Virus record (IMG/VR): IMGVR_UViG_2718218139_000007
Direction: 5' to 3' (one strand)
DNA length: 64,000 nt
DNA from: a virus
Lineage: Duplodnaviria; Heunggongvirae; Uroviricota; Caudoviricetes
In this document: positions 9,001 through 15,000 of the stretch, in pieces
Layout: every line of letters starts with the position of its first letter
How positions within the stretch are numbered: the stretch's first letter is position 1
Made by a program: the position numbers

Positions 9001-12000
9001 GATCCTGCTGGTACCATGCTGTCGTGGTGGTTCGGCATTTACCCAGGGCGCGGAGGGGACATTCAGCGAGTCCACGGGGGCCAGTCAGGATTCGGCACGC
9101 TGGGGGATGGGCAAGCCGTTATATCAGGATCTGATTTCCCGCACAAAAGCGGCATTGCAGAAAAATCCCAAAAACGTTCTGCTGGCCGTCTGCTGGATGC
9201 AGGGTGAGTTTGACATGAGCGCCGCCACCCACGCACAGCAACCTGCGCTGTTTACAGCCATGCTGACACAGTTTCGTGCTGACCTCTCCGTGTTTAACGC
9301 GCAGTGCCATGGTGGCAGTGCTGCAGATGTGCCGTGGGTTTGTGGTGACACGACGTATTACTGGAAAAATACATACGCTACCCAGTACGACACCGTGTAC
9401 GGCGGGTATAAAAACAGGGAGAGTGAGGGCGTTTATTTTGTGCCCTTCATGACAGACGGTAACGGCGTCAATACCGCCACTAACGCGCCGGCAGAAGATC
9501 CGGATATTCCGGCATCAGGATATTACGGTGCGGCATCGAGAACGAATGGAAACCAGGTATCATCAAACCGCCCGACACATTTCAGTTCATGGGCGCGCAG
9601 GAGCATTATTCCGGATCGTCTGGCAACCGCTATTCTGAACGCAGCCGGGCGCACCTCAGCCTTCATCAGTGGTAAGGCACCGGAAATCAAACCCTCGCCC
9701 GGCGGCAACACGCCATCGGGTCCGTCTGCAGATACGTCCGTTCGCACAATCTCCCTGCTGCCGGCAGCCGGAGAGGCTGCTGCGCAGGGCTGGAGCATTA
9801 AAGATGGCGGAATTCAGTTGTCAGATGGTGTATTTAAGATCACCAAGCAGAGCAATAAAACCTGGTCCCTGACGCATCCGGTGGATGACGCAATTACCCT
9901 GCTGACACAGGGCGGCAGACTGACCTGTAAGTTCCGCCTGTCAGGCGCACTGACCAACAATCAGTTCGGGCTGGGGATTTATCTGTATACGGATGCTCCC
10001 GTTCCTGATGGTGTGGCGATGACGGGTACCGGTAATCCGTTCCTGATGTCGTACTTCACTCAGACCACTGACGGCAGAGTGAATCTGATGCATCACAGGA
10101 AAGCCGGAAACACGAAGCTGGGGGAGTTCGGCGATTACGGTAACGACTGGCAGACGCTGGAGCTGGTGTTCACCGCCGGCAGTGCCACGGTTACTCCGAA
10201 ACTGAATGGAGTGGCTGGCCCGGCATTCCAGGTTATAAAAGACAGTCTGACACTGGGACTGAATGCGCTGACGCTGACGGATGTTACAAAAAATGCAGCG
10301 TATGGCGTTGAGATAGAAAGTCTGATGCTGGAGATAAATGCACCGGCAGCATAATAAAAAAAGCCAGCGACTGATCTGAAAAAGAAGACGCTGGCTAAAA
10401 GGCCTTATATGTTTGTAGAGACTTATTTTTCACAGACAGCAATGATGCCTGTCAATATATTATCAATATGCGGATTGTTTCAGTTACAGATGCCTTATTA
10501 AGGAAAAAAACAGCCAGCACTGACTTTCGGTGGAGAGGTGCTGGCTCAAAAGGATAGATGTACTTCACATGTTGCTTCTATATGGTAGTACATTTTCTGA
10601 CAGACAGTGACGGATGTTGTCAAGATATTGTGTCATTTATAACCTGAATCAGGGGAGGCCGGAATGTTATCTGGCATTTTTAGCAGAGCCTGAATGCCAT
10701 GATCACGGCTCCCGGCGTTGGCCGTCAGTGGGTGACACTGGCGGCTTTTTTGTTTTTCTTTACTTTCATTTTCTGTCGGCGGTGACGGAGACATACATCA
10801 GATGGAAAAAATCACAACAGGTGTGTCATACACCACGTCAGCGGTGGGGACGGGATACTGGTTACTGCAGCTGCTGGACAAAGTCTCTCCGTCCCAGTGG
10901 GTGGCAATAGGTGTGCTGGGGAGTCTGCTGTTTGGCCTGCTGACGTATCTGACAAACCTTTATTTCAAGATTAAAGAAGATAAGCGCAAGGCTGCGAGAG
11001 GTGAATAATGCCTCCATCATTACGAAAAGCCGTTGCTGCTGCTATTGGTGGTGGGGCTGTTGCCATAGCGTCTGTGCTCATCACTGGTCCGAGTGGTGAC
11101 GATGGCCTGGAAGGTGTCAGCTACATACCATACGAAGATATCGTTGGCGTATGGACTGTATGTCACGGACACACCGGAAAAGACATCATGCCCGGTAAAA
11201 CGTATACCGAAGCAGAATGCAAAGCCCTCCTGAATAAAGACCTTGCCACGGTCGCCAGACAAATTAACCCGTACATCAACGTCGATATACCGGAAACAAC
11301 GCGCGGCGCTCTTTACTCGTTCGTTTACAACGTGGGCGCTGGCAATTTCAGAACATCGACGCTTCTTCGCAAAATAAACCAGGGCGATATCAAAGGCGCA
11401 TGTGATCAGCTACGGCGCTGGACATACGCTGGCGGTAAGCAATGGAAAGGGCTGATGACTCGCCGCGAGATTGAGCGTGAAGTCTGTTTGTGGGGGCAAC
11501 AATGAGCAGGGTAACCGTTATTATCTCCGCTCTGGTTATCTGCATTATCGCCTGCCTGTCATGGGCTGTTAATCATTACCGCGATAACGCCATTACCTAC
11601 AAAGCGCAACGCGATAAAAAAGCCAGTGAGCTGAAGCTGGCGAACGTGACAATTACTGATATGCAGGTACGCCAGCGTGATGTCGCTGCACTTGATGCCA
11701 GATACTCGAGGGAATTAGCTGATGCGAGAGCTGAAAATGAAACTCTGCGTGCTGATGTTGCCGCTGGTCGTAAGCGCCTGCGCATCAACGCCAACTGTCC
11801 AGGCTCCTTGCGTAAAGCCCCCATCACCTCCGGCGTGGGTAATGCAACCGGTCCCCGACTGGCAGAAGCCGCTGAACGGGATTATTTCATCCTCAGAGAA
11901 CGGCTGATGGCAATGCAGAAGCAACTGGAAGGAGCACAGGAATATATCCGTACCCAGTGTATACCGTGATGTTTTGTTATGAAGGTGTTACTGGTAACGT

Positions 12001-15000
12001 TAAGGTAATTTAACAAAGAGTCAGTTCCGGACTTTATAGTGTGCTCAGTTCATGGCCAAAAACGATTTCTGTGATAAATATTTTGAATATTATTTACAGG
12101 TAAATGGAGTGGGGCGCATGGATAGAAATATTACAATAGAGTATGAAGTATATGCCCGTATTGTATGGGCAGAGAAGGCAAAAACACGGTAATTCCGTGT
12201 GTTGCCATGATACCTGATTGGCAGAATAGTTGTTTGGTTTTGAGTATATAGTCAGCGTTTTTTGTTCAGTAATTGCCCCCTCAAAAAATAATAAAATAAG
12301 GTGATTATTTTTGTTTATTATTTAGTTTTTTTGTGTGTTATTTTATTGTTTTTGCGTGGTTTGTTTTTTATTGTTATTTCATTAAGGGAAGGTAAATTCA
12401 GGATGGCAGTCTGTAGATAATCGGAGGTCACTTATGCTACATGATCACGTGGCAGAATGTCTGGAGAAAAAAGGACTGTACCGGAGAGCAGCTGAACGAT
12501 GGGCAAAAGTGATGGTACAGCTAAGTGATGACCAGAAAAGAAAAGTGGCGGCACAGAAACGAGCAGAGTGTTTGCGTAAGGCGCGCCGGACTCCGGTTTC
12601 ACCGGTGAACCTGACCGAAATAAAACAAGCGGTCAACAGACTACATTCTGAGTTGGGAATGGGATTTGAAGAGCGGCGGGTATTCCGACGATATAAAGGG
12701 ACAGGAGAACAGAATACGTCCGGAAACGCGCGGTCAAAAAAATGCTAAAAAATATCTGAGAGAGTTATTGCCTGTTACCATAAGAAAAAGCGACTTTAGT
12801 GGTCGCTTTTTGTGTCATATATAAGTCGTTTAAGTAAACCTGTCTGAACAGGTGCTCTGGTCGTGTTTGTCTTTGTTGGGTACAAATTGAGAATATTTTT
12901 CATTAATTAATCTTCTTCTGCAGGCTTCAATAACCCACGCTGAAAAATTACCTGAACCTTTCTGGTCAAGAGCGATGTTAATTTGTTCAATCATCTGGTT
13001 TGGAAATCGGATGTTGCGGGTTGTTGTTCTGCGGGTCCGGTTTTTCGGTGACATTTTCTTTCCTCTGGTGACAAGCTATATGGCGAGGATTTTACATGGC
13101 CGTGCTTCGTACGTTACCGGGCAGAATCAAAACTCTGAATACCCGGCGGGTGAATGTCCTGAAGGGTGAACAGCGTCGGGTCAGTGGCAGTGCCCGGGTT
13201 TCCCTCAAGCGTCGTATCTGGCTGAGGGATGCCGGACAGTGCTGTCTCTGTGGGCGTGTGGTTGACCTTTGTGACAGTGAACTCGATCACCGCATTGCAC
13301 TTCAGTTCGGTGGTGGTAATGAGGAGACGAATCTCTGGACGCTCTGTACCGAATGCCATCGCCAGAAGTCAGTCAGTGAAACGGCGAGTGGTATGCCGGA
13401 CCCGACGCTGCCGGAGGTCATGGCAGGGCAGACGATATCATCGGACTGTGACCCGCCCCGGGGGGGGGATCATCCGGCGAAAAAAACGATCGCCCCGGAC
13501 ACCGCCCCCCGTCTCATGCAGAGAAAAAATTCCTGTTTCAGGCCAGTTAACATGTTAACTGGCTGCCCGGGCATTTTTGCGGTTTTTATCTTTATTATTC
13601 AGTTTGTTGTGCGAAAAAAATGTTAACTGGCTTTTTCAGCAAATGTTAACCAGGCAGCAGTTAACATTTGCGGCATGAGACGCCGGGAAAAATGGGCTGA
13701 ACCATACCCGGCTGAGTGCGTTATGGACCCGGGAGGAGGCTGTGCTGACAACGCAAAAACGAAAATTTGCGCTGGCGCTCATGTCCGGGAAAAACAAAAC
13801 AGCGTCAGCCATTGCCGCCGGTTATTCGGCGAAGACCGCCAGGATTAAAGGCTCGCAGCTGGCAAAAGATCCGGAGGTGCTCGCGTTTATAGCCCGTAAA
13901 CAGTGCGAAACGGTGGAGGTGGATGAGGTTCCTGTTTACCGGCAGAAAAAATCAGAGCAGGAGGATAAACCCCGTCGCCGTGAGGTGGCTGCAATACCAC
14001 AGCCGGACGAAAAAAATCCGGAGATGCCTCCGCCCGCGGTGATATCTCATGGTATTGAATATATGGAGGATGGTCTTCCCGATCCGGTGAAAGCTATGGG
14101 GCAGATCCTGGTGGAAAACCTGATAATTGACCCGAAACTGGCACTGGATGCGGCCTGGCGACTGGCGCAGTTCACACACCATAAAAAAGGCGATGCCGGT
14201 AAAAAATCGGCAAAAGGTGATGCCGCGAAAAAAGCGGCTAACCGTTTTGCGGTGCCGCCACCTCCCCGACTGGTGGTGAATAACCAGAATGAGGAAAGCG
14301 GATGATACCTGTATGGAGCACGGCATGTCCGGACTGGGCAGAGCGCCTGAAAAAGGGGCTGTCGATTATTCCGGCTCCGATTTATCCGGACCAGGCTGCA
14401 CATGCACTGGCGATTTTTAAACAACTGCGGATTGTGGATGCACCGGGTAGCCCGACATTCGGGGAGTCCTGTGCACCGTGGGTGTTTGACCTGGTGGCGG
14501 CCCTGTTTGGCTCCTACGATGCGCAGACCGGTGTTCGCCATATCAAGGAAGTGTTTATCCTTATCCCCAAGAAAAACTCGAAGTCCACGCTGGCCGCGGG
14601 GATCATGATGACTGCACTGTTACTGAACTGGCGGCAGGCGGCGGGTTACACGATTCTGGCCCCGACAGTGGAGGTGGCAGCCAACGCCTTCAACCCTGCC
14701 AGGGATATGGTACGACGGGACGATGATCTGGATGACCTCTGTCAGGTGCAGACACATATCCGGACCATCACCCACAGGGTGACGGACACCACCCTGAAGG
14801 TGGTGGCAGCCGATCCGAATACGGTGTCCGGTATCAAGTCCGTGGGGACGCTGATTGATGAATGAGGTAGCCTGAGTTTAACGGACACTCCTTCCTGAAA
14901 TAGAATGGCATCAGAAGGAGCTAATAATGAGCAGAAAAACCCAACGTTACTCTAAAGAGTTCAAAGCCGAAGCTGTCAGAACGGTTCTTGAAAATCAACT

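Follow-up and report, generated by a model that had tools for sequence, protein, structure and literature searches.

The closest described relatives of the locus considered here are pchA of E. coli O157:H7 Sakai, carried by prophage Sp4, and, more distantly, perC of EPEC. PchABC are published as activators of the LEE1 (ler) promoter (PMC4456613, PMC6265319, PMC4764244), and PerC (BfpW), which belongs to the same Pfam family and shares the core G-[LF]-Y-RRAA-x-RW, is a LEE1 activator as well (PMC4456613). The targets of Pch are AT-rich stretches coated by H-NS, at effector genes and the LEE1 promoter, where it loosens the H-NS complex and thereby turns on the type III secretion regulon (PMC4764244, PMC6094958). 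Transcription of pch receives inputs from LrhA and butyrate/Lrp (PMC4456613) and from ppGpp/DksA (PMC6094958, PMC2241611). In the mechanism of Melson & Kendall 2019, as reviewed in PMC7769764 and PMC7873438, pch also forms a hairpin between its Shine-Dalgarno (SD) sequence and an anti-SD segment, which is relieved by the small RNA DicF. The two relatives differ in setting: perC is the third gene of perABC on the EAF plasmid, is driven by PerA, an AraC-type regulator, and lacks a separate leader, whereas pch is monocistronic, prophage-borne and multi-copy, with a 464-bp AT-rich leader and 15 more residues at the C-terminus of its product.

Here we describe the copy of pch found in the window, by which we mean the whole 64-kb stretch of DNA that was analysed (coordinates are collected in Table 1). 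As a whole, the locus is best explained as a standard pchABC-type cassette that a lambdoid prophage carries as a moron among its late genes, between Rz and ylcI/HNH/terminase, a reading to which we give a probability of about 0.9. Nothing sets the gene apart from the prophage-borne pch of EHEC that has been studied in detail; both it and its conserved AT-rich control region are confirmed here and were known before.

Table 1. Features of the pch locus, in coordinates of the window
Feature	Position	Strand	Basis
pch (PchABC group, PerC-family activator; same sequence as Sakai PchA)	12434..12748	+	ORF, ATG start, 104 aa
Shine-Dalgarno sequence GGAGG of pch	12424..12428	+	read from the sequence; 5 nt before the ATG
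Coding segment, predicted anti-SD (12522-12533) and DicF-complementary	12513..12537	+	folds, duplex prediction
AT-rich non-coding pch leader (promoter region and/or 5′ UTR)	11970..12433	+	composition, co-inheritance with the gene
Low-complexity tract rich in T/G and poor in C, 54-144 nt ahead of the pch start codon	12290..12380	+	composition
Stable hairpin ACACGG-TAATT-CCGTGT in the leader	12184..12200		terminator scan, folds
Candidate 46-aa ORF	12052-12192	+	phrog_2157 match
Candidate 39-aa hydrophobic ORF	12301-12420	+	ORF only
Candidate minus-strand RNA	about 12281 to the hairpin at 12200-12184	-	consensus patterns
Variable cargo ("moron") slot, from the Rz 3′ end to the conserved N-terminal ylcI/ynfO	11948..12911		homology breakpoints
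Bidirectional intrinsic terminator (A-run, GC stem, T-run) between convergent pch and ylcI	12785..12811		folds

The pch product and its family

The preliminary description had recognized a 104-aa PerC-family product with the signature GLYRRAAERW, and the Pfam profile bears this out: residues 1-89 match positions 1-89 of the 90 positions of PerC (PF06069) with an E-value of 3.8e-44 and a score of 149.3 bits, the curated cut-off being 22.6 bits. The signature occupies residues 14-23 and coincides with the core of the family, where R17, R18, A19, A20 and W23 do not vary in an alignment of 41 sequences (PchD and PchE left out), nor does C46 further on, and G14 and R22 hardly vary. In total, 56 loci were retrieved across Enterobacterales with the pattern G-[LF]-[YWF]-R-R-A-A-x-R-W plus a cysteine. 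Alignment with the named relatives gave 100% identity to PchA (ECs_1091) of O157:H7 Sakai and 47% identity over 87 residues (E 5e-28) to an EPEC-type PerC, represented by the perC ORF located 3′ of perA/perB on an IncF plasmid, so that the one objection raised beforehand, a lack of significant similarity to PerC or Pch, falls away. The accompanying statement that such regulators activate the LEE master regulator agrees with the published role of PchABC cited above.

Under the name "PchABC family transcriptional regulator", the exact protein was found on at least 1000 contigs and in 15398 blocks of the collection, and because the labels A, B and C are strain-specific, the window copy is best called "pchABC-type". 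An AlphaFold model of the product consists of four helices, with pLDDT above 90 at residues 1-50. Searching the PDB with the sequence gave nothing significant (best E 0.1), and Foldseek found no significant PDB fold match to the confident AlphaFold model (best E 1.8), thus the comparison says nothing new on the DNA-binding mode of Pch. For an identical protein the literature shows activation of LEE1/ler and a requirement for full LEE expression, and this mostly helical product would likewise switch on the type III secretion regulon through loosening of H-NS.

The cassette and its prophage slot

Leader, gene and terminator together make up one cassette of 861 bp, which at 99% identity or more is present in 657 records and in 672 of the 5426 complete E. 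coli genomes, with a median of three copies. All 672 genomes with pch also have the full-length leader, at 1874 places, and the leader was never found without the gene; the spacer moves with pch as one block. A single pch copy lies within the window, in the order holin, lysozyme, Rz, pch, ylcI, HNH and terminase. The window also holds type III secretion system (T3SS) effector genes (NleH-like, NleF, NleG and WxxxE-type), and the LEE is absent from it. The closest match in the complete-genome collection is O55:H7, with 98.6% identity over 93% of 25 kb. In the phage collection only two unannotated fragments match the cassette, which makes it essentially a prophage feature in these data.

Compared with prophages that carry other cargo, homology breaks off at 11947/11959 (for the DUF1398 locus at 11749) and begins again at 12907/12912/12920, and elsewhere the same slot holds iss (bor-like), a hypothetical gene, a DUF1398 gene or a TonB-family gene. 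Lambda bor/iss and the other post-Rz cargo share with pch the slot from Rz to ylcI/terminase and are each self-contained, but their products are unrelated (lipoprotein, DUF1398, TonB-like) and iss lies on the opposite strand. The pch cassette was in every case located in this slot, after Rz/Rz1, in prophages with Nu1/GpA-type and with Terminase_2/TerL-type packaging modules alike. In Sakai Sp4 the 1-kb module including leader and terminator is 99.3% identical to that of the window (six mismatches and one gap) and likewise follows directly after Rz/Rz1 of a lambdoid prophage, although the backbone differs: the lysis-pchA block is inverted beside IS629, whereas in the window ylcI, HNH and Terminase_2/TerL come next. 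The Sakai leader further differs by a few SNPs and by a run of eight instead of seven T residues. The TerL gene of the window is split by an IS3-family element.

At its downstream end the pch unit is closed by the bidirectional terminator, which is unchanged in three compared copies; its predicted folding energy is -14.7 kcal/mol for the plus strand (z -4.2) and -11.9 kcal/mol for the minus strand (z -3.9). The cassette is carried by a lambdoid prophage that is probably defective and lies beside a T3SS effector locus.

The AT-rich leader and its T/G-rich tract

An AT-rich tract had been described upstream of the gene from position 12000 onward. Its AT-richness stood, with 33.4% GC over 12000-12433 against 49.8% for the window, but its start did not, as the non-coding spacer begins at 11970, directly after the Rz stop at 11969, and has 33.6% GC over its full 464 bp. 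None of 30 records among the matches listed has an annotated feature under the leader, and a permissive Rfam scan of 10000-14000 gave no RNA family. The unusual T/G-rich stretch placed at about 12290-12380 was likewise confirmed: its 91 nt are 62.6% T, 16.5% G, 18.7% A and 2.2% C (two C residues), forming a core of 18.7% GC, and a T+G (or A+C) content of at least 0.80 over 91 nt is reached at just two places in 64 kb, here and at 999-1089. AT-richness alone is less unusual, with 17 regions of the window containing 100-bp stretches of 25% GC or less. A role of the T/G-rich part was not found in the accessible literature.

For this upstream tract, nucleoid-protein silencing or curved DNA had been suggested, which we regard as plausible but weakly supported: AT content is markedly raised, predicted curvature is local and moderate, the H-NS motif is not enriched, and the tract has no counterpart ahead of 53 PerC homologues from other species. 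Under a wedge model, predicted curvature peaks at 12092, 12281 and 12325 belong to the top 0.5-1% of the window, and the 111-bp T-rich core ranks among the 2.4% most curved stretches of its length. The prediction over 12000-12430 yields moderate local peaks, but the 434-bp fragment overall is not unusually curved, its value being equalled or exceeded in 62% of windows. AA/TT dinucleotides recur with a period of about 11.25 bp more strongly than in shuffled sequences, but the T-runs within the tract are out of helical phase. The high-affinity H-NS motif (TCGATAAATT-like) is not enriched in the window (54 sites versus 58 expected), and its matches in the leader amount to one site with two mismatches at 12007-12016. 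No H-NS binding data for pch upstream regions were found in the accessible literature, including the supplements of Fukui 2016.

The spacer is the gene's own control region. We infer that it would contain one or more promoters and upstream A/T-tract DNA, that it would make pch transcription depend on the global signals named above (ppGpp/DksA, LrhA and butyrate/Lrp), and that the same DNA would be a natural target of nucleoid proteins. The T/G-rich tract would then be either upstream UP-like bendable DNA or the start of a leader RNA. Consensus scans gave several weak, mutually exclusive promoter candidates, from which the 5′ UTR would measure roughly 29, 106, 135, 197 or more nt, and no pch transcription start site was found in the accessible literature.

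That said, it is possible, if doubtful, that the tract is not an element of silencing or curvature in the DNA but is transcribed as a U-rich 5′ leader RNA, which could be a platform for Hfq, ribosomal protein S1 or an RNase or could pair with A-rich parts of the coding region. Upstream of the tract are the best consensus promoter-like sites, TTAACA-19-TATAGT (12010-12040) and TTGCCA-17-AATAGT (12202-12230), and from either of them the mRNA would include all of the tract; in full-length folds the U-rich leader pairs with A-rich segments further downstream, and post-transcriptional control of pch is known (PMC7769764, PMC7873438). However, consensus promoter-like sites are no commoner in the leader than in shuffled sequence (2 found versus 2.8 expected), the leader belongs to no Rfam family as scanned above, and the tract is poorly conserved in the pch copies of strain A25, E. 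albertii and pDEC5B-4, which makes a specific RNA structure unlikely.

Variation among the copies also bears on another reading, which we consider unlikely, that the tract is functionless, being AT-rich filler or the recombination scar of a mobile cassette that looks conserved from recent spread. All 1874 copies are 98-100% identical in coding and non-coding parts alike, thus their conservation says little on constraint, and 12 copies on differing prophage backbones share a leader of about 99% identity. The run at 12326-12332 is polymorphic in length, with seven T residues (T7) in the window, O55:H7 and L015 and eight (T8) in nine other copies. In A25, the one clearly diverged E. coli copy, the segment 12230-12440, tract included, is the most changed part of the cassette, and no comparable T/G-rich tract was found upstream of 53 PerC homologues from other Enterobacterales species. 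Against this reading, an AT/T-rich block persists in the diverged lineages of pch (A25, E. albertii and pDEC5B-4), where an ATTATTT..TTATTTTTG-like core is recognisable about equally far from the ATG, and tight regulation of pch from its native upstream region is known (PMC4456613, PMC6094958). Leader copies were either near-identical or unalignable.

Considerably less probable is that the tract acts as a tuning element, in which T7/T8 and point variants set each paralogue, or as the source of an antisense or divergent small RNA. If the former were true, altered promoter geometry or nucleoid-protein binding would give each prophage copy a differing set-point, which might explain why pchA and pchB are reported to be regulated differently; if the latter, a small RNA would arise from the A/C-rich complement of the tract together with the minus-strand hairpin at 12200-12184. 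This hairpin is stable on both strands (-14.8 kcal/mol, z -3.1, on the minus and -16.7 kcal/mol, z -4.2, on the plus strand) and is terminator-like on the minus strand only, where a T-run comes after it.

We give hardly any credence to a product encoded by the leader itself: the 46-aa ORF has a full-length match to phrog_2157 (E 2e-37) and some annotations include it as a gene, but its homologues are only Escherichia "hypothetical proteins" of 87-98% identity, several of them shortened to 25-31 aa, both SNPs among copies are non-synonymous and it has no RefSeq annotation in 30 records among the matches listed, while a minus-strand RNA has a promoter-like site (12317..12288) and the terminator-like hairpin with its T-run in its favour, yet consensus patterns as its sole basis. 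The 39-aa ORF was rejected, as the T7/T8 polymorphism frameshifts most copies and no family match was obtained.

Predicted translational control and the place of pch in virulence

The window copy is predicted to have the published translational switch intact, its SD region, coding partner and DicF-complementary segment all being present and unchanged relative to the DicF-pchA system. The SD sequence GGAGG is kept in all diverged copies, and folds pair 12423-12434 with 12522-12533. Using the DicF sequence of Sakai Sp4 (identified by Rfam match), nt 1-24 were predicted to pair with 12513-12537 at 22 of 24 nt and -27.6 kcal/mol, a value that none of 500 shuffles equalled, though about four other tiles of the window score equally well or better. 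Both the SD/anti-SD and the DicF sites are unchanged in the diverged A25 copy. Rfam gave no match to dicF itself in the whole 64-kb window. The predicted pairing is consistent with the published mechanism and is not independent proof of it. In that mechanism, the SD and start region would pair with a coding segment about 90 nt downstream and so gate translation, and DicF, stabilised at low oxygen, would bind the anti-SD segment, leaving the ribosome-binding site free.

As master switches, the pch genes connect the LEE-dependent attachment of EHEC and atypical EPEC with the prophages that a strain carries. Whether pch is present, and in how many copies, is a useful marker of the potential for virulence.

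The pch gene and its cassette

The preliminary description of this DNA had proposed a 104-aa PerC-family gene carrying GLYRRAAERW as a PerC-type signature, and both statements were borne out. The pch ORF, preceded by GGAGG five bases 5′ of its ATG, encodes a product that is matched end to end by Pfam PerC in a profile search (E 3.8e-44, 149 bits, cut-off 22.6). GLYRRAAERW occupies residues 14-23. A search of 1.8 billion representative proteins supplied 41 PerC-family members for an alignment, in which six positions (R17, R18, A19, A20, W23 and C46) never vary and two more (G14 and R22) hardly do; because of this conservation within it, the motif is a true PerC-family signature. 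The alignment with PerC and Pch that had also been proposed found significant similarity to both: 47% identity to PerC (E 5e-28), the reference being a plasmid ORF downstream of perA- and perB-like ORFs, and 100% identity to PchA (ECs_1091) of E. coli O157:H7 Sakai, whose locus is 99.3% identical over 1 kb around the gene. The exact 104-aa sequence occurs on at least 1000 contigs and in 15398 blocks of a public collection and is named “PchABC family transcriptional regulator” in one source. An AlphaFold model built with 46 family sequences has four helices and is confident for residues 1-50; neither the sequence nor the fold of this model has a significant match in the PDB.

Leader, gene and terminator together form a pch cassette of 861 bp (11970-12830). 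Of 687 records that match it, 657 do so at 99% identity or more; it occurs in 672 of the 5426 complete E. coli genomes, each holding 1-5 copies (median 3). Searched alone, the leader was found in the same 672 genomes, full-length every time, and in none of the 30 records listed does an annotated feature lie under the match. Between twelve cassette copies carried on different backbones, the sole differences are the length of a T7/T8 run, a 1-nt change in another run and a few SNPs; position 12340 shows an A/G variant. The homopolymer (12326-12332) is T7 in the window, in O55:H7 CB9615 and in one further comparison locus (L015); the nine other copies, Sakai pchA among them, have T8. Gene order is constant, Rz/Rz1 being followed by pch, ylcI (DUF3950) and then packaging genes of the Nu1/GpA or Terminase_2/TerL type. 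In lambdoid prophages that lack pch, homology to the window breaks off at about 11947-11959 (at 11749 in a DUF1398 locus) and returns at about 12907-12920; the interval holds iss (bor-like), a DUF1398 gene, a TonB-family gene or a hypothetical gene. This makes the pch cassette a classic moron in the slot downstream of Rz. The stem-loop that follows the gene is a predicted terminator that should serve both pch and the convergent ylcI. Downstream of ylcI, an HNH endonuclease ORF (13096-13626) has 176 aa; the annotation of related prophages gives about 121 aa or a partial gene, and the longer form may be a read-through or fused variant.

Features of the pch cassette and of the remaining window
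Feature	Position	Strand	Remarks
46-aa ORF	12052-12192		PHROG of unknown function matched
Hairpin	12184-12200	-	terminator-like on this strand only, T-run after
Promoter-like site	12288-12317	-	pattern match
pch ORF	12434-12748	+	ATG start, 104 codons
Stem-loop	12785-12811	both	stable fold, A-run and T-run flanks
TerL ATPase part	14302-14865		
IS orfA	14927-15229		IS3-family
IS orfB	15265-16083		IS3-family
TerL nuclease part	15989-17221		
Integrase	32102-32842	-	downstream of tail genes
NleH/OspG-like kinase	33259-34179		
NleF	34245-34814		
NleG	36971-37618	-	
IpaB/EvcA protein	37802-38392		WxxxE, EspM/Map-like
RNA features	3694-3843, 8194-8366, 48844-49032, 56218-56468, 57868-58080		hok/sok antitoxin RNA, two STnc100, C4 antisense RNA + isrK, two prophage tRNA clusters

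The leader and its T/G-rich tract

The upstream DNA is AT-rich as first described (33.6% GC against 49.8% for the window), although the spacer begins at 11970, after the Rz stop at 11969, rather than at 12000, and measures 464 bp up to the ATG. The T/G-rich low-complexity stretch noticed at about 12290-12380 is likewise real, with 62.6% T, 16.5% G and 2.2% C, and is one of only two such strand-biased stretches in 64 kb. The further suggestion was nucleoid-protein silencing or curved DNA. Under a Bolshoy-Trifonov wedge model, local curvature peaks at 12092, 12281 and 12325 rank within the window's top 0.5-1%, and for curvature the 111-bp tract core ranks within the top 2.4% of stretches of its length; the whole 434-bp upstream fragment is unremarkable, the T-runs of the tract keep no helical phase and the H-NS nucleation motif is not enriched. 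AA/TT periodicity lies at about 11.25 bp, above shuffles. A silencing or curvature role is plausible from composition but weakly supported by computation.

Upstream of 53 PerC-family loci in other species of Enterobacterales, the median GC is that of the flanks; just five loci are clearly AT-shifted there, and at none does T+G reach 0.75 over any 91 bp. Judged from these sequences, the tract is not a PerC-family trait. The locus of E. coli A25 from a monkey (L018, 911-1195), aligned with window 12180-12460, has a mosaic cassette: identity is about 99% over the distal leader (11960-12220) and much lower over 12230-12440, which suggests that recombination took place within the leader. No other part of the cassette has changed as fast in this strain as the tract. 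Even so, an AT/T-rich block whose core resembles ATTATTT..TTATTTTTG is retained, at a comparable distance from the ATG, in A25, in E. albertii and in a plasmid-borne, 78%-identical homologue. Promoter-like hexamers in the leader are no more frequent than in shuffles, and the candidates imply incompatible start sites with UTRs of about 29 to 387 nt; one of them, TTGTTA-16-TAAATT (12371-12398), keeps its key positions in A25. Given these results on composition, curvature, motif, homologues and promoters, we regard the tract as part of the pch regulatory DNA or leader.

Translational control and other elements of the leader

In pchA the Shine-Dalgarno (SD) sequence pairs with an anti-SD segment in the coding region, which blocks translation; under low oxygen the sRNA DicF lifts the block (PMC7769764; PMC7873438; PMC13138055). 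In predicted folds of the present copy, 12423-12434, from the SD to the first base of the AUG, pairs with 12522-12533. The DicF copy found by Rfam in Sakai prophage Sp4 is predicted to form a duplex with 12513-12537 through 22 of its first 24 nt, at -27.6 kcal/mol, a value that none of 500 shuffles equals; because other places in the window give comparable duplex scores, the sequence evidence is consistent with the DicF switch and is not proof of it. The SD/start and anti-SD/DicF sites are unchanged in A25, the most diverged E. coli copy.

Two small ORFs in the leader are probably not genes. The 46-aa ORF has only Escherichia calls as relatives, 87-98% identical and several truncated, and both of its SNPs among cassette copies are non-synonymous; a 39-aa hydrophobic ORF merely reflects the T-richness, and the T7/T8 polymorphism shifts its reading frame. 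On the minus strand, the promoter-like site and the complement of the tract, which is rich in A/C and poor in G, are followed downstream by the hairpin; going by these patterns, a short RNA, antisense or divergent, could be made here, or the region could be rut-like.

Prophage context and the action of Pch

The TerL gene is broken by an IS3-family element (14302-17221), and for this reason the pch-carrying prophage is probably defective; the corresponding TerL of O55:H7 CB9615 is intact. Very AT-rich DNA after the integrase holds a T3SS effector locus (region 32102-38392), whose products belong to classes of effectors that are Pch/Ler-regulated according to published work. Taken together, the RNA features indicate two lambdoid/P4-like elements in tandem. 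On pDEC5B-4, an IncF plasmid of O55:H7 (L003), a Pch homologue (2501-2815) is 78.6% identical, with an NleG effector gene about 2.2 kb downstream; nucleotide homology to the window starts only 28 nt 5′ of the ATG.

According to published work on a protein identical to this Pch, full LEE expression needs PchA/B/C, which attach to AT-rich DNA occupied by H-NS at LEE1 and at effector genes, lower or remodel the binding of H-NS, and depend on H-NS/StpA for their effect (PMC4764244; PMC6094958; PMC4456613). Inputs to pch expression in published work are ppGpp/DksA, LrhA, and butyrate via Lrp. In gene, position and leader, pch does not depart from hundreds of sequenced copies, and the finding is textbook EHEC biology, a regulator cassette of the pchABC type.
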